From a virus: 11,725 bases of DNA. The notes beneath the pieces are model-generated. The model saw only the letters and a list, made by a program, of their open reading frames with translations. It was not told where the DNA came from and searched no databases. Shown one piece after another: positions 2,100-8,288 of the stretch (its first letter is position 1; each line of letters opens with the position of its first letter). The translations under genes and the position numbers were made by a program. The stretch lies in UHGV virus genome UHGV-0243446. One strand, written 5' to 3'.

Positions 2100-2747
2100 T
2101 CACTCTCCTTTGATGCGAATGCCAGCGGCGCGTGGCACATTAACTTCCACGATGCGCACAGTTGGTTTGTACATCTCAATTGCTGTCAGCCAGTCAGCTC
2201 CTGTCATGCGCTTTTCCGCATCGCCATTAGTCCACTGAACCGGTACACCAATAGCCTTCATCGCGATTTCTATTTCCCCGGCAATGGCGCTTTTTCCGCA
2301 ACCAGTAAAACCAGAAACAACGACAAGAACTTCACCTTTGGCTGGTTTTATTTCCCGTGCTTCCAGTTCTGCAATACGCTTACTCCCATCCGAGATAACA
2401 CCTTCGTAATACTCGCGTTGCTCGTTGAGTTTTGATTTTGCTTCCTCAAGCTCAACACGCAGCTTCCCTACCGTTAGCGCAATATCCTCGTTCTCCTGGT
2501 CGCGGCGTTTGATGTATTGCTGGTTTCTTTCCAGCTCATCCAGCAGCGCCCGAACTACATCAGCGGTTTTCTGGCACTGGTCAACAATGCTAACGTCACA
2601 ACCAGTATCGAAACCGTCCTCAGTTTCAAAGCGGAGCTCTACAGAGTCGCCGTCGATATCAGATGGTTCGAACCCGGCAATGTTTTCCAGAATGCCGATT
2701 ATGCTTTCTGCGCTATGACGTAATGCGCGTTTATCGATGTTGCTCAT
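2100..2747 (-). CDS. Coiled-coil accessory protein (215 aa), possibly Ea22-like, with C-terminal GxxxxGKS motif
   Basis: ATG at 2747 overlaps the upstream stop (ATGA). Central charged heptad-like region (ELEEAKSKLNEQREYYE...AELEAR). C-terminal GFTGCGKS matches the Walker A pattern. The Ea22-like assignment is from memory and weak. Confidence 0.55.
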   Translation of the reverse strand: MSNIDKRALRHSAESIIGILENIAGFEPSDIDGDSVELRFETEDGFDTGCDVSIVDQCQKTADVVRALLDELERNQQYIKRRDQENEDIALTVGKLRVELEEAKSKLNEQREYYEGVISDGSKRIAELEAREIKPAKGEVLVVVSGFTGCGKSAIAGEIEIAMKAIGVPVQWTNGDAEKRMTGADWLTAIEMYKPTVRIVEVNVPRAAGIRIKGE

Positions 2748-3262
2748 GACCGCACTCCTTTGCGAAGCTGGGAAGCAAAGTCAACTAACCACTCAGTCAT
2801 TTCAACCTTCCCTACCAGGTCTGAACCAGGGTGCATACAGCAATCACTCTGCGCCGCTTTGAAATCCTTATACTCATATTCTTGGGCCACCAGATTTTTT
2901 GCAGCTTCTATAGCAGCATCCACGCCCTGCGCTCGTACTTCAGCCAGGAAAGCATCGGTGGCTGGGGTGTCTGATTGCAGAAACTTTGCGCGATAGTCAT
3001 TCCACCCTCTTGCATACATGGGATTAACTTGCACTCCATCTTTTACGCAATATGCCTGCCCTCCACGGTTGATAACCTTGATTTCGTCCATAGCGCCAGA
3101 CTTCGGCCCCGCATTCTCCGCTGCCAGCGCCGCGCACTTGGCCTCAGCTTCAGCAAATTTACGCACCATATATTCAGCATTTGTTTCGTTAACCTTTAAA
3201 TCACATGAGATGCATTTACCTTTCAGAAATCCATCCATCTCAATTAGTGTCATTCGTTTCAT
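2744..3262 (-). CDS. Hypothetical protein (about 172 aa)
   Basis: Track ORF begins with GTG at 3280. An ATG about 3262 overlaps the upstream stop as ATGA, suggesting translational coupling. No recognisable domain. Confidence 0.5.
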
Positions 3263-3433: not shown

Positions 3434-3730
3434 TCAGTCATTACTGATAGCGCCATAGCGTGAGCGGTAATTACGCAGGCGCGGGTCGATATATTCAGGG
3501 AAGTGGGTATATGTGGCTTTGCGGAATGGTCGGATTGATGTCTGGTAAATTCGCTCGCGTTCTTCTTTCTCTGCAAGCCATATACAGTGGCGAAATTCCT
3601 TTTCCTCTTTCGTTTCCTGCGGTAGCGACATTATCCGATCGTAGTTTTTTCTGAATTTATCCAGCACCTCCGATACGGAATTGCCGGAACAGCGGCGCGC
3701 GTCATCCGCACCATACAAAGGCGCTGGCAT
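3434..3730 (-). CDS. Hypothetical basic protein (98 aa)
   Basis: ATG at 3730 with AGGAG RBS 6 nt upstream; directly follows the SSB stop. Confidence 0.55.
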
Positions 3731-3743
3731 GTTTTTCTCCTGA

Positions 3744-4250
3744 TTAAATTGCGTGAATAGCGTGACGAGGGAAGGGGAGAGTTACTGGTGCAAAGGGTAT
3801 ATCGTCGTCAAAATCCATCGGAGGTTCGTTGTGTTGTGCTGGTGATGATTGCTGCTGTGGCTTCTGTGATTGCCTGCTGGCTGCTTGTTGTTTGCTGTCG
3901 CCAATGCCGCCAAGCATTTGCATCACGCCATTAATTCCGACATGAACCTCGGTTGTGTAACGGTCTTGCCCTGACTGGTCTTTCCACTTTCTGGTTCTCA
4001 GCATTCCCTCGAAATAAATCTGATCACCTTTTTTCACATACCGCCCAACGACCTCAGCCAGTTTCCCGGATACAGCAACACGATGCCATTCAGTCAATTC
4101 CTTTTGCTCGCCAGTATTTTTATCTCGCCATTGTTCTGACGTGGCTATTGTCAGGTTAGCGAACGCTGTTCCTGATGGTGAGTATCGAACTTCCGGGTCT
4201 TGTCCTACCCGACCAAGGATAATCACCTTATTTACGCCTCTGCTTGCCAT
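3744..4250 (-). CDS. ssb: Single-stranded DNA-binding protein (SSB) with C-terminal extension
   Basis: N-terminus [13 protein letters not shown]...DPEVRY...TEWHRV...[11 protein letters not shown] closely resembles E. coli SSB, followed by a Gln/Ser-rich tail and [10 protein letters not shown]. The ORF then continues 15 codons ([15 protein letters not shown]) before the stop. Confidence 0.9.
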
Positions 4251-4958
4251 TTATGCCGCCTGTTTTAGTTCGTTAACTCTGATGTTCATTACCTGAACGC
4301 ATTTAGCCTGCGCCTCCTCGTTGCCAGCCATTAATTGCCAGTCACGCTGATAACGCTCGATGAGTTTTTTCTTGTCAGTTTCTGTTGACGCATAATCGCT
4401 GAAGTCTTTCAGGATTTGTTCGCAGTCAACCGATGGAGATTTCTGGTTGGTATTTTCTGGTGATGGTTTGTTATCTGATGCTGGGATTGCCCATCCCGGC
4501 AGCGATGGAGGAAGCCAGTAAAATCCTGTTCCATCCTTCAGTTTTGCCCTGTGCCACCCCTGCTTTTTATCGAGAGATGTTTGTGCGAAACCTTCCTCAA
4601 GGTTATACAGATACCGACCGATTCCCCATTGAACGGCAGCACGCTTCATTGCACCGGAACGACCACCTTTGACGGCTTCTACCTGCGTGTTTTCAGCAGC
4701 ATCCCATTTGGTTACCCATTCGGAATCAATCCTGATTGATATGCCGCATTCAACGCCTCCGTTGTTGGGAATATCGCGGTATTCATTGCGCCATCCTGCT
4801 TTGCCGCAAACATCGTCCAGGCGTTTCATGATTGCCCGGTTCGTGACATAAGCCAGCACCATAGCCCACACTTTGCCATCGCGTGTTTTACCGCTTTGCT
4901 GTATTCGCCATTCGATATCTTCAGGGCTGAATGGCTCATCGAATTTGTTCAAATCCAT
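4251..4958 (-). CDS. Rad52/Rad22-family single-strand annealing protein (phage recombinase)
   Basis: ATG at 4958 with GAGGTGA RBS. Core region (KWDAAENTQVEAVKGGRSGAMKRAAVQWGIGRYLY) resembles the conserved Rad52 annealing fold. Sits immediately upstream of ssb (TAAATG junction). Confidence 0.65.
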   Translation of the reverse strand: MDLNKFDEPFSPEDIEWRIQQSGKTRDGKVWAMVLAYVTNRAIMKRLDDVCGKAGWRNEYRDIPNNGGVECGISIRIDSEWVTKWDAAENTQVEAVKGGRSGAMKRAAVQWGIGRYLYNLEEGFAQTSLDKKQGWHRAKLKDGTGFYWLPPSLPGWAIPASDNKPSPENTNQKSPSVDCEQILKDFSDYASTETDKKKLIERYQRDWQLMAGNEEAQAKCVQVMNIRVNELKQAA

Positions 4959-5057
4959 AATTCACCTCAGAATGGACACGGCCCAAGGAAATAACGCTGA
5001 TTTAATACTTCGACTCGGGACAAATTAAGGCATACCCGCATTCCTTCGCGGTCACCA

Positions 5058-5216
5058 TTATGGCGACACCAGAGAGCTTTCTGCGTGTACATGCGTCTCT
5101 GTAACTTGCTCTCCTTCACTGTGGTTGCAAGTGACATGAATATCTCCTTCGTTACCGATTAATTCTTTCATCTGACGAATGAATTCTTCGTCTGACCAGT
5201 TATCTGTAAAACTCAT
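5058..5216 (-). CDS. Small protein in the kil position (about 52 aa)
   Basis: ATG about 5216 overlaps the stop of the cIII-like gene. It occupies the slot that kil holds in lambda; there is no sequence-level support for Kil identity. Confidence 0.35.
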   Translation of the reverse strand: MSFTDNWSDEEFIRQMKELIGNEGDIHVTCNHSEGEQVTETHVHAESSLVSP

Positions 5217-5383
5217 GGACGGCCTTGTTGTTTCAAAATATCCCAAAGCTTTTCGAGCAAACTTTTCATTCTTGGTTGTTTAAAGTCTGCTCCGGTTAAA
5301 ATATTTTTTCGTGAATGCTGTACCGATAAAATCGGGTTGAAAGGGCGAACCGATGCCGCCCCTGCAATAGCGAACTGTTGCAT
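5213..5383 (-). CDS. cIII: cIII-like protein (56 aa; FtsH-inhibitor family)
   Basis: Absent from the ORF track (under 60 aa). ATG about 5383 with AAGGAG RBS 6 nt upstream. Product MQQFAIAG...KSLLEKLWDILKQQGRP resembles lambda cIII (MQYAIAG...SLLERI...LIDILNQPG) as I recall it. Confidence 0.6.
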   Translation of the reverse strand: MQQFAIAGAASVRPFNPILSVQHSRKNILTGADFKQPRMKSLLEKLWDILKQQGRP

Positions 5384-5449
5384 AGGATGCTCCTTCTGTT
5401 TGATTGCATAACGAAAACGCCTCGAGTGAAGCGTTATTGGTATGCGGTA

Positions 5450-5470
5450 AAGCCGCCAACAGGCGGCTAT
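5450..5470 (-). terminator. Hairpin GCCGCC-AACA-GGCGGC downstream of the 5474-5707 gene
   Basis: Perfect 6-bp GC stem with 4-nt loop. The T-rich flank is better on the plus strand than the minus strand, so terminator function for the leftward operon is uncertain. Confidence 0.3.
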
Positions 5471-5473
5471 TTG

Positions 5474-5707
5474 CTATTGATTCTTTTCAAGAACATCAAT
5501 GATGTCGTCCGGGTTGTCTCCGTTGTCTTCACAAAATGCTTCGAATTCAGCCCATTTCGCGCTGATAAAATCAATTACTCTCATTAATTCGTATTCCATA
5601 TTTTTCTCCAGACCAAAAGAATGCCGCCCATATAGAGCGGCAAGACTATCAAGGAATGATTTCCAATAATCAGAACAAGTCGGCTCCTGTTTAGTTACGA
5701 GCGACAT
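5474..5707 (-). CDS. Hypothetical protein (77 aa; possible alternative start about 5599 giving 41 aa)
   Basis: ATG at 5707 with a weak RBS; an internal ATG about 5599 has a GGAG RBS. Followed on the minus strand by a GCCGCC/GGCGGC hairpin. Confidence 0.4.
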   Translation of the reverse strand: MSLVTKQEPTCSDYWKSFLDSLAALYGRHSFGLEKNMEYELMRVIDFISAKWAEFEAFCEDNGDNPDDIIDVLEKNQ

Positions 5708-5744
5708 TGCTCACATAGCAGACTCGCAAATCTGCTATAGGTGC

Positions 5745-5906
5745 TTATTCGCATCGCATGACAACATCAAATTTTTCGAGATTACTTTGTCGCAACAATC
5801 CCTCTTCTACGCGGTCAGCTTTTCTATAATTATCAAATTCGAAATGTTTAATTACTTCTTTCGTTTCTCGCTCTATAACTTCAACGATGTATTTCTTATT
5901 CATCAT
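5745..5906 (-). CDS. Hypothetical small protein (about 53 aa)
   Basis: Absent from the ORF track. ATGATG start overlaps the stop of the 98-aa gene; GGGGAAG RBS-like sequence upstream. Product MMNKKYIVEVIERETKEVIKHFEF... Coordinates +/- 2 nt. Confidence 0.35.
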   Translation of the reverse strand: MMNKKYIVEVIERETKEVIKHFEFDNYRKADRVEEGLLRQSNLEKFDVVMRCE

Positions 5907-6199
5907 TCTTCCCCAAGAGCTTTTCTGATTGCTGCAAGACCATTATTAACAGCTCCATACCATTCTGGATATGTTGTCGTTGTTCTATTTTTGGTTTGCT
6001 TAAGTAATAACTGAAGTGCTTCGAGAAGGTCAGGTGCTGCCGCTATTAGATTGGCATCTTCAATGCATTGAACTTCCTCACAGATTGCAATATACGAACG
6101 CCAGCCTGCGCCATTTTCAAGTGAGTCTGCCTGGATTATTTTAATCTCGTCGCCATCCATCATTATTTCCCACTTGCCTTCAGTACCTTTAAATTCCAT
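5903..6199 (-). CDS. Hypothetical protein (98 aa), in the ea10-like position
   Basis: ATG at 6199; sits between the ral-like and cIII-like genes. No recognised domain. Confidence 0.55.
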   Translation of the reverse strand: MEFKGTEGKWEIMMDGDEIKIIQADSLENGAGWRSYIAICEEVQCIEDANLIAAAPDLLEALQLLLKQTKNRTTTTYPEWYGAVNNGLAAIRKALGEE

Positions 6200-6238: not shown

Positions 6239-6439
6239 TCAGGCAGCCTTGTTATTCTGTTTACCAAGTTCTCTGGCAATCATTGCCGTCGTTCGTATTG
6301 CCCATTTATCGACATATTTCCCATCTTCCATTACAGGAAACATTTCTTCAGGCTTAACCATGCATTCCGATTGCAGCTTGCATCCATTGCATCGCTTGAA
6401 TTGTCCACACCATTGATTTTTATCAATAGTCGTAGTCAT
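6239..6439 (-). CDS. ral: Ral-like restriction-alleviation protein (66 aa)
   Basis: 66 aa, the same size as lambda Ral. Its start is overlapped by 17 nt by a 28-aa ORF, which matches the lambda orf28/ral arrangement as I recall it. Product MTTTIDKNQWCGQFKRCNGCKLQSEC... Confidence 0.55.
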   Translation of the reverse strand: MTTTIDKNQWCGQFKRCNGCKLQSECMVKPEEMFPVMEDGKYVDKWAIRTTAMIARELGKQNNKAA

Positions 6440-6517: not shown

Positions 6518-6817
6518 TCAAATAAGTGGTTTGCTGCCTAATTTCATTTTCTGGCGACCAACACAAGTCACACCCATTTCACTGCGTGGCTTGCTGTAGT
6601 AAATACGGTTCTGTTTACGCTCGACTTCTTCTGCCTTCTTGCAGCGAAGGCTTCCGAGTGATGCTGCTTTGTCTGCTCTGACGCAACCAGAGAGCTTTAG
6701 CGCAATTTTTCGCGCCAGTCGCTGTTCTTGCATTGCCTGTTCACGTTGAGCCTGTCTGCGTGCTCTGCGGCGATTTCTGGTGTTATCGTCAGCCAGATAT
6801 GTAATGACTACTGCCAT
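6518..6817 (-). CDS. N: N-family transcription antitermination protein
   Basis: ATG at 6817 with GGAGG RBS 5 nt upstream. N-terminal arginine-rich motif (TRNRRRARRQAQREQ). C-terminal region (RKQNRIYYSKPRSEMGVTCVGRQKMKLGSKPLI) resembles lambda N. nutL lies upstream in the leader. Confidence 0.85.
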   Translation of the reverse strand: MAVVITYLADDNTRNRRRARRQAQREQAMQEQRLARKIALKLSGCVRADKAASLGSLRCKKAEEVERKQNRIYYSKPRSEMGVTCVGRQKMKLGSKPLI

Positions 6818-7185: not shown

Positions 7186-7575
7186 TTAGTCAGCGAAGGT
7201 TAAGACGAGAATTACCTTAATGATGTCTGCTACAACAGACACGGCCATAGATAAACCAAAGACAATCCAAGCCATAGAGATGTCTTCACTACCATCGTAT
7301 AGAGTTCCGTAATCACTGGTGTAAGGCGTAAATGTCGCGCCTTGATACAACAGGTATAAGCTTGAACCATAGAGGATAAATGCAGATATCCCTTGTATTG
7401 CTATGATCACCAGAATCATGAAACGAGCTGATCTATGCGCCCAAGCCTGGCTTATTTTTTCTGATAGAGATTTCGCAATAAAAGCATGCGCTAAGCCGTA
7501 AATTGTCGAGATTTCCAACATCCCCAAAAAGCTTGCTATAGCGGTTCCAACCATAATCGCCCCTTGCGTGATCAA
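7186..7575 (-). CDS. Small polytopic membrane protein (3 predicted TM helices) in the rex/immunity-region position
   Basis: Track ORF begins with TTG overlapping the cI stop. An ATG about 7554 with AAGGGG RBS is likely the real start (about 122 aa). Three hydrophobic segments of about 22-25 residues. Downstream of cI on the same strand, as rexAB is in lambda. Confidence 0.6.
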   Translation of the reverse strand: MITQGAIMVGTAIASFLGMLEISTIYGLAHAFIAKSLSEKISQAWAHRSARFMILVIIAIQGISAFILYGSSLYLLYQGATFTPYTSDYGTLYDGSEDISMAWIVFGLSMAVSVVADIIKVILVLTFAD

Positions 7576-8288
7576 ACCAGCCTTAGTTTTGTCTCAATTG
7601 CAACGCCTATAATCTTGCAGTTTCCATTGATTGGCACGAGAGGCCATGCAGGATTAAGTCCCTTGAGGTATTTATTTCCGCCGTCGATTATCAGCTTCTT
7701 GAATGTTGCTTCGTTAGAGTCAGAAAGTTTTGCTATGACCAAGCTGCCGTTGATCGCCTCCCTTCCGGTATCGAAAAGAACGAATGTTCCCTCTGGAATG
7801 CTTAACCCAACCGGTGCCGTCATTGAATCACCTTCCACTTTAAGCCAGAACGCATTACCTTGAATATGCGCGTCAGACTCAAGCCAAACATCTATGTCTT
7901 TAATGGTGTATGGTTCGCATGCTTCACACCACGAGCCAGCCTGGATACTGCTTAACACCGGATACCTCTTTCCTGCTCTGTATTCCCCTGCATACCTTAC
8001 GTTGGCATCGCTCTTAAGGCTTTCTGCCTGTTCTGCAACCTTGGCAGCAATTGACTGGCTAAAATCAGCAATTGAGACTTGCAACAGTCGTGCAAAACCA
8101 GATGCAACCTCAACGTTTAGCGCGTTTCTGCCATTAAGATAATGCCCTACCGCTCCTTGGGTGATACCCAGTTCATCAGCGATTGAGTATTGGGTTATTC
8201 CCAATTCTTTCTTTTTTGACTCATACAAAGCCTTAAGCCGCTTAGCGTCTTCGAGCTGTTCTGTCGTCAGTGATTTTTTATTTTCCAT
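7572..8288 (-). CDS. cI: cI-type phage repressor (HTH N-domain plus S24 LexA-like autoprotease C-domain)
   Basis: N-terminus MENKKSLTTEQLEDAKRLKALYESKKKELGITQYSIADELG resembles lambda cI. Ala-Gly cleavage site in IQAGSW. Catalytic Ser in GDSM and Lys in FKKL. Start codon abuts the operator region. Confidence 0.92.
   Translation of the reverse strand: MENKKSLTTEQLEDAKRLKALYESKKKELGITQYSIADELGITQGAVGHYLNGRNALNVEVASGFARLLQVSIADFSQSIAAKVAEQAESLKSDANVRYAGEYRAGKRYPVLSSIQAGSWCEACEPYTIKDIDVWLESDAHIQGNAFWLKVEGDSMTAPVGLSIPEGTFVLFDTGREAINGSLVIAKLSDSNEATFKKLIIDGGNKYLKGLNPAWPLVPINGNCKIIGVAIETKLRLV

Follow-up and report, generated by a model that had tools for sequence, protein, structure and literature searches.

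Genes and signals of the early-left region

The window analysed here, a stretch of 11,725 nucleotides from the viral genome UHGV-0243446, covers the early region of a lambdoid phage or prophage of the P22/Sf6 kind, as recognized from its gene order and from Pfam and PHROG matches. The minus strand carries genes for a cI-type repressor (8288..7572), an N-like antiterminator (6817..6518) and ral (6439..6239), and three small ORFs lie between ral and the interval studied here. Beyond this interval, on the same strand, are the genes for a Rad52-like single-strand annealing protein of the Sf6 gene 28 type (4251..4958; PF04098, E = 7.2e-26; phrog_1097), which serves as context only, for SSB (4250..3744) and for Abc2 (3730..3434). 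The plus strand contains cro, cII (PF05269, E = 3.8e-44) and the replication genes. Based on this minus-strand gene order and on the presence of cro and cII on the plus strand, the studied interval is assigned to the pL operon, where the lysogeny-helper genes give way to the recombination module.

Two terminator-like hairpins, which together span 5416..5468, were found on the minus strand by a pattern scan and from the sequence. The first (AGCCGCC-TGTT-GGCGGCT) lies at 5468..5451 and the second (AACGCTTC-ACTC-GAGGCGTT, followed by TTCGTT) at 5435..5416, both just upstream of a 56-aa ORF. Their equivalents are a rho-independent terminator annotated in mEpX1 and tL2A in Sf6, and the two hairpins seem to hold a tL2-like position that would be read through by N-antiterminated pL transcripts. 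An Rfam scan of the whole window recognized no family.

The 56-aa ORF (minus strand, 5213..5383) starts with an ATG at 5383..5381, ends with a TGA at 5215..5213 and encodes the protein MQQFAIAG...KSLLEKLWDILKQQGRP; a Shine-Dalgarno sequence, AAGGAG, is present at 5390..5395 (minus strand), with a spacer of 6 nt to the ATG. It is followed by a 52-aa ORF (minus strand, 5058..5216) with its ATG at 5216..5214 and its stop codon at 5060..5058. The ATG of this second ORF overlaps the TGA of the first as ATGA, and a weak AAGG is located 6 nt upstream of it. A sequence-only reading of the window had reported these two ORFs, the one with a strong ribosome-binding site and the other overlapping it, and both exist as described. 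According to the same reading both fall below a threshold of 60 aa; this is correct for the 56 and 52 aa counted from ATG, but when alternative starts are allowed the second ORF sits in a 62-aa TTG ORF (5058..5246), which passes the threshold.

The third small gene (minus strand, 4967..5137) encodes a 56-aa protein of the gp42 family (Sf6 gene 29, HK97 gp42, phrog_1723; E = 5.1e-34), for which annotated homologues exist. Its own AAGGAG, at 5144..5149 on the minus strand, with a 6-nt spacer to the ATG at 5137, is embedded in codons 23–25 of the 52-aa ORF, and the gene overlaps the last 26 codons and the stop codon of that ORF in the +1 frame, over 80 nt. The possibility of programmed +1 frameshifting between the two was considered and is unsupported: the 82-aa fusions found in databases come from indels at many positions, and no slippery motif between the 52-aa ORF and gp42 was seen by eye.

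Dozens of chance ORFs of 50–100 aa are present in the window. Because ORFs of this length are so common by chance, the case for genes rests on conservation. The 56-aa ORF is a genuine gene under purifying selection. Among its 30 DNA haplotypes, obtained from 76 related loci, 16 of the 22 variable sites are at codon position 3, the changes comprise 15 synonymous and eight non-synonymous ones, and 22 of the 30 haplotypes encode an identical protein. The 52-aa ORF, a member of the Sf6 gene 30 and HK97/HK022 gp42.1 family, is likewise a real, conserved and selected small gene. It shows 100% amino-acid identity to gene 30 of Shigella phage Sf6 and matches phrog_2123 over 52/52 positions (E = 6.6e-42). 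Variable sites are concentrated at codon position 3 both in the part that is not shared with the next gene (8/9) and in the first 51 nt compared across module types (9/14). As for the gp42-family gene, 18 of 34 variable sites in its non-overlapped part are at codon position 3, and the 80-nt overlap has 11 variable sites, of which five are at position 3 of the gp42 frame versus three at that of the other frame, a slight lean towards gp42 on numbers too small to carry weight.

These genes are already in public records and are of known kinds. More than 30 phage records contain the 56-aa protein with 100% identity, among them mEpX1 ("putative cIII protein"), HK542, HK140 and SPN9CC, and some of the records name it cIII or putative cIII, whereas in E. 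coli genomes it goes under "hypothetical protein" in the PGAP annotation. Among near-identical prophages of E. coli, PGAP calls only gp42 (CM2), only the 52-aa ORF (LD67-1) or neither of them (XH2172); in the curated phage records of Sf6, HK022, HK542 and mEp235 the small genes are annotated. The earlier suggestion that both ORFs would be missed by routine annotation thus holds for the overlapping 52-aa/gp42 pair, whose PGAP calls vary, but not for the cIII-like gene, which is called. No NCBIfam model matched any of the three small ORFs, their family profiles returned nothing above noise in a PDB sequence search, and a full-text literature search for "gp42.1" together with HK97 returned nothing.

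Relation of the 56-aa ORF to cIII

Pairwise similarity of the 56-aa ORF to lambda cIII (BLASTP E = 0.025 in a single comparison; E = 5.4 for tblastn of lambda cIII against the window) is too weak to decide its relation, and profile methods were therefore needed. The ORF matches PHROG 550, "CIII" (E = 1e-22), which is also matched by the cIII proteins of lambda, P22 and HK022. When an alignment of 22 homologues was compared by hhalign with an alignment of lambda, P22, Sf6 and HK022 cIII, the two matched end to end with 95.3% probability (E = 2.2e-8), and once an HMM search had supplied a deeper alignment, the match again covered the full length (94.1%, E = 1.3e-7). Two insertions occur in the middle of the alignment. 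The sequence-only reading had called this ORF cIII-like and had proposed alignment with lambda and HK022 cIII as the check. The likeness is borne out at the level of profiles only (PHROG 550; hhalign 94–95%), where it extends from end to end, while BLASTP is weak and Pfam gives nothing.

For Pfam, neither PF02061 (Lambda_CIII) nor PF08134 (cIII) matched the 56-aa ORF at E <= 1, whereas the control proteins were recognized (lambda cIII, 1.5e-30; P22, 1.4e-26; HK022, 2e-30). Weak matches to PF02061 exist in three of 24 relatives of the ORF, the best with E = 0.0032. A profile HMM search with this family in 1.84 billion representatives enlarged it to 35 clusters and did not reach lambda-type cIII.

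The position of the gene in the pL operon, after N, ral and the terminators and before the recombination genes, with cII in the same phage, is that of cIII. Distant relatives of the 56-aa ORF are found in the same place, after cI and N and ahead of recombination genes. At the level of the protein, AlphaFold2 (pLDDT 65) predicted helices at residues 17–26, 31–34 and 37–53, the last with a pLDDT of about 85. The best 15-residue stretch has a hydrophobic moment of 0.63, a value reached by 10% of shuffled sequences, and the cIII proteins of lambda, P22 and HK022 have values of 0.79–0.91. The amphipathic helix noticed from the sequence thus corresponds to the predicted helix 37–53, with the caveat that its moment is below those of known cIIIs and is matched by one shuffle in ten. 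The MQxxAIAG N-terminus that had also been noticed is common to the 56-aa ORF and the characterized cIIIs, but the likeness seen in SLLE was mistaken, as the profile alignment pairs another stretch with the SLLE of lambda.

The cIII classes recognized by Kobiler et al. in 2007 were those of lambda and HK022 only, and residues 14–37 of lambda cIII are both essential and sufficient (PMC1838920). The counterpart of this region in the 56-aa ORF is the least conserved part of the protein and carries the two insertions. Since only these two classes were recognized there and the essential region is rebuilt here, we call the 56-aa ORF a third cIII class, cIII56; judged by its profiles and its place in the operon, it is a remote and divergent cIII homologue by descent and position. 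By homology, its peptide would inhibit FtsH.

It is also conceivable that the 56-aa protein descended from cIII but has lost its action on FtsH, and that the rebuilt centre serves another target or another early-left role. The alterations in just the region that is essential in lambda would fit such a change, as would the weaker hydrophobic moment, the lack of a Pfam match and the strict exclusivity of cIII56 with kil described below. However, both ends of the protein are conserved, synteny is kept even in distant relatives, and cII is present in the same phage. Moreover, the cIII of HK022 likewise departs strongly from that of lambda in its core (Lambda_CIII E = 0.17), and yet the HK022 protein is treated as a cIII in the literature (PMC1838920). 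We therefore regard a loss of action on FtsH as rather unlikely, and keep to cIII56 as a putative inhibitor of this protease.

The 52-aa ORF, kil and the recombination module

In Sf6, HK022 and mEp235 the gene order is cIII, kil, an ORF of the 52-aa type, a gp42-family ORF and the annealing protein, and kil in these three phages encodes a true lambda-like Kil of 50 aa. A tally was made over 173 related loci, drawn from phage records, IMG/VR and genomes as best-80 samples, with a best-match bias and some duplicates. The 52-aa ORF follows a true HK022-type kil in 94 of these 173 loci and directly follows the cIII56 allele in 77. In this sample cIII56 and kil are strictly exclusive, as none of the 77 loci with the cIII56 allele has kil. 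In all 173 loci the 52-aa ORF starts with an ATGA on the upstream stop codon.

The phage in the window is without a lambda-, HK022- or P22-type kil: tblastn searches of the whole window with the three types of Kil gave nothing significant. The Kil models (Pfam PF06301; PHROGs 3924, 2461, 2055 and 2394) matched neither the 52-aa ORF nor gp42, although they matched their controls, and hhalign gave gp42 a probability of 2.7% against Kil. Kil homology of the 52-aa ORF and gp42 is thus rejected by Pfam, PHROGs, tblastn and hhalign alike. The earlier remark that the second ORF has no evident similarity to lambda Kil is therefore right, since this ORF matches no Kil family, whereas its description as a "kil-position" gene is not: a real kil lies between cIII and the same ORF in the 94 loci, so that the ORF occupies the slot after kil. 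Because the phage simply lacks kil, the 52-aa ORF cannot be read as a replacement for it.

One might nevertheless suppose, along the lines of the host-targeting product that the sequence-only reading proposed for the 52-aa ORF, that this ORF or gp42 is a non-homologous analogue of Kil, which blocks cell division or harms the host in another way and makes up for the missing gene. The host is a frequent target of small proteins of the pL operon, the window has no kil of the three types, the cIII56 cassette is never accompanied by kil, so that any Kil-like function that the phage may need would have to come from another gene, and gp42 is faintly Kil-like by eye (helix-G-D-helix). However, both ORFs are present, unchanged, in the 94 sampled loci with a true kil and hence are not replacements, and the Kil families and hhalign, as described above, gave them no support. 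We consider such an analogue very improbable.

The beginning of the 52-aa ORF marks a junction between modules. A near-invariant 50-nt segment (minus strand, 5167..5216), equal to about the first 17 codons of the ORF, was recognized by cross-locus comparison. It is nearly base-identical across the left cassettes (cIII56 alone, or cIII and kil) and across three recombination modules, and the DNA similarity between modules sets in precisely with the ATG and stops around codon 17. Since these first 50 nt are shared between differing flanks, the segment represents a mosaic junction of the left cassette and the recombination module, and its near-identity is in part a product of recent recombination and not of long-term constraint.

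The family of the 52-aa ORF includes length variants of 35, 36, 52, 56 and 60 aa, which have only the head, MSFTDNWSDEEFIRQMKE, in common. The 35- and 36-aa variants have an acidic tail and precede orf103 and RecT, the 52- and 56-aa variants precede gp42 and a Rad52-like protein or Erf, and the 60-aa variant precedes a divergent gp42 and a Rad52-like protein. For the 52-aa protein, AlphaFold2 predicted a helix at residues 9–20 and disorder in the remainder.

The head is similar to the N-terminal end of P22 Arf, and SDEEFI is common to both. An alignment of the 52-aa family matched an Arf alignment in hhalign with a probability of 80% (E = 1.3e-5) over 19 N-terminal columns. The Arf homologue of Klebsiella phage RCIP0034, which is 50% identical to P22 Arf and is encoded directly before an Erf-type gene, shares 10 of 21 N-terminal residues with the 52-aa ORF (BLASTP E = 2e-6), and its best tblastn match in the whole window is located exactly at 5216..5136 (E = 8e-5). 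Over this stretch the DNA of the two agrees at only 65% of positions, and 12 of their 22 differences fall on codon position 3. A 61-aa member of the family is named "accessory recombination function protein" in an nr entry. On the other hand, Pfam PF17585 (Phage_Arf) matched neither the 52-aa ORF (E <= 1) nor four variants (E <= 10), whereas P22 Arf as a control gave E = 1.9e-35, and the Arf PHROG, phrog_2445, gave only E = 0.037 with the 52-aa ORF, at residues 5–26. The C-terminal motif ERQNPxIxWDEFAG, which is invariant in the Arf proteins of P22, BTP1 and Klebsiella, was looked for in all variants of the 52-aa ORF and is absent from them. These comparisons suggest that the N-terminal helix of the 52-aa ORF is related to the N-terminus of P22 Arf, and the product of the ORF, as far as can be judged from such similarity, most likely assists phage recombination as an accessory factor of that module.

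Instead of its peptide, the translation of the 52-aa ORF could be what matters, the ORF serving as a coupling or leader ORF that sets the expression of the downstream recombination genes. Ribosomes leaving cIII, or in other phages kil, would restart at the ATGA and cross the embedded AAGGAG and the start of gp42, and the first 50 nt would be a homology patch for module exchange. Such a role would account for the ATGA in all 173 sampled loci and for the downstream ribosome-binding site and start, which in every module type lie at an equal distance within the small ORF (gp42; orf103 in mEpX1). It would also fit the length and tail of the ORF, which vary with the downstream module (35, 36, 52, 56 or 60 aa), and the almost base-identical first 50 nt across modules. 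However, the variable sites of the head fall mostly at codon position 3 (in both of the comparisons given above), the head is conserved with the Klebsiella Arf homologue as protein and not as DNA, and AlphaFold2 predicted a defined helix. A coupling role and a role of the peptide are not mutually exclusive; as the explanation of the ORF, coupling seems to us an unlikely one, and we prefer an Arf-like accessory peptide.

A model of the locus and its comparison with known systems

Taken jointly, it is fairly probable that this part of the pL operon consists of a divergent cIII and an Arf-like recombination-accessory gene with an overprinted tail; it has no kil. By this model, N antitermination would allow the pL transcripts to read through the two terminator-like hairpins, and cIII56 would be translated from its strong ribosome-binding site. 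By homology, the cIII56 peptide would be short-lived and would bind the host protease FtsH both as its substrate and as a competitive inhibitor; the inhibition of FtsH would protect the CII activator of the phage and thus favour lysogeny. Ribosomes finishing cIII56 would restart at the ATGA on the 52-aa gene. The conserved acidic helix at its N-terminus (WSDEEFIRQMKELI) would be the functional part of this gene and probably assists the recombination module. The C-terminal half would be a poorly constrained tail, an overprinted by-product of gp42, existing because gp42, with its own strong ribosome-binding site, is overprinted in the +1 frame.

A bolder joint interpretation, which we hold to be less likely still than the coupling role, makes the 17-codon head a universal adaptor of lambdoid recombination modules as well as a crossover patch, and cIII56 the rebuilt FtsH inhibitor of cassettes without kil. 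The acidic Arf-like helix may then work with three unrelated families of annealing proteins (Rad52-like, Erf and RecT), and, because the adaptor would serve all three, it would act on a common partner (SSB, RecBCD/Abc2 or the replisome) and not on the annealing protein. The DNA of the head may at the same time be a preferred crossover patch for module swapping.

None of these results would surprise a specialist of lambdoid phages. What is new is modest: the recognition of cIII56 as a third cIII class and its strict exclusivity with kil, the Arf-like head of the 52-aa ORF, and a module junction located precisely inside this ORF. For annotation, the 56-aa "hypothetical protein" that is widespread in prophages of E. 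coli and Salmonella can be assigned to a cIII class that Pfam misses, the ORF after cIII56 can be described as the conserved gene that heads the recombination module and not as a kil analogue, and gene callers are seen to be inconsistent on the overlapping 52-aa/56-aa pair. If the Arf-like head is functional, it would provide a handle on the mechanism of P22 Arf and would mark a precise junction of module exchange in lambdoid phages.

Like the CIII proteins of lambda, P22 and HK022, the product of the 56-aa ORF is small (about 50 aa) and is encoded by the first gene after tL2-type terminators in the pL operon, upstream of the recombination genes and with a cII partner in the genome. It has in common with them the N-terminal MQxxAIAG, the C-terminal LxQxGxP, that is, L(K/N)Q(Q/P)G(R/V)P, and a predicted C-terminal helix. 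However, it differs by the two insertions (about 10 residues) in the counterpart of lambda residues 14–37, by the lack of the strongly basic ERITRKLRDGWKRL core, by the lower hydrophobic moment and the failure of both Pfam models, and in that its gene is never followed by kil.

The likeness of the 52-aa ORF to the Kil of lambda, HK022 and P22 consists only of its size and of being the gene right after cIII. There is no sequence relation, a true Kil co-occurs with the 52-aa ORF in most of the sampled loci, and whereas lambda kil overlaps cIII by 32 nt, the 52-aa ORF overlaps cIII56 by 4 nt.

P22 Arf, which is reported to aid P22 recombination without being essential (PMC12315714), is likewise small and acidic, belongs to the pL operon and is translationally coupled to the upstream gene. 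The two proteins have the N-terminal (F/W)xD(D/E)EFI within a helix in common, and the Klebsiella homologue, 48% identical to the first 21 residues of the 52-aa ORF, forms a bridge between them. However, the 52-aa ORF is without the C-terminal motif of Arf and fails the Pfam model, and whereas arf stands just before the strand-annealing gene, the 52-aa ORF is separated from that gene by the gp42 gene. Its head is also found before Rad52-like, Erf and RecT modules alike, and thus a partnership with one annealing protein is unlikely.

In the Sf6 gene 30/gp42.1 family itself, the ATGA start, the overlap with the gene that comes next (Sf6 gene 29, HK97 gp42) and the Rad52-like gene behind it are all the same as in the window. 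In Sf6, HK97 and HK022, however, kil is located upstream of gene 30/gp42.1, whereas in the window this place is held by cIII56.

cIII56 and cIII plus kil as alternative cassettes

In none of the 77 related loci that carry the cIII56 allele, the 56-aa cIII-like gene at 5213..5383 (minus strand), was a kil gene of the lambda/HK022 type found, whereas kil exists in all of the related loci with a cIII of the HK022, Sf6 or lambda type. The cIII56 allele and the lambda/HK022-type division-inhibitor gene are mutually exclusive, and cIII plus kil on the one hand and cIII56 on the other behave as alternative cassettes.

In many database entries the cIII56 gene is given as a 91-aa protein with an upstream TTG start (5384..5488, minus strand), as in cluster P0003 (224 member sequences) and mEpX1_036. 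Because the longer reading frame crosses two terminator-like hairpins and bypasses the AAGGAG-ATG start, the TTG start was probably mis-called.

Mosaic junction and gp42-family gene

Directly downstream of cIII56 lies the 52-aa ORF (5058..5216, minus strand; Sf6 gene 30/HK97 gp42.1 family), the first 50 nt of which (5167..5216, minus strand) are nearly identical in base sequence across the related loci L001-L179. The ATG marks the exact start of this homology, which stops near codon 17, and the loci sharing it carry two kinds of left cassette and, behind it, recombination modules of three kinds (Rad52-like, Erf and RecT). The 50-nt stretch is a sharp mosaic junction within a gene.

The next gene, of 56 aa (4967..5137, minus strand), belongs to the gp42 family (Sf6 gene 29, HK97 gp42, phrog_1723); it has a strong AAGGAG ribosome-binding site with a spacing of 6 nt, shares 80 nt, read in the +1 frame, with the 52-aa ORF, and showed no significant relation to Kil. 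Fusions of the two products, 81-82 aa long, are recognized in seven database proteins (P0053, P0060, P0063, P0069, P0076, P0091 and P0094), where a change of frame by a single base joins the two; in all, seven different sites in the overlap are affected, and one of the proteins, P0076, is carried by 36 NCBI contigs. The fusions may come from errors in sequencing, be mutations that are tolerated, or have some other origin.

A distant relative, L185, has two small ORFs (57 and 55 aa; 2535..2872 of that locus), overlapping by 4 nt, after its cIII56-family gene, and a Rad52-family gene follows the pair. In the 57-aa product, a helix-G-helix pattern is vaguely reminiscent of gp42 and Kil.

Other small ORFs

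Between ral and cIII (5474..6199, minus strand) there are three small ORFs of 98, 53 and 77 aa (phrog_1273, phrog_6949 and phrog_15754), and no other part of the operon varies as much among close relatives. Directly downstream of cI, and on the same strand, an ORF of 129 aa (7186..7575, minus strand) encodes hydrophobic segments; its placement is like that of rex and other prophage-expressed exclusion genes of other lambdoid phages.
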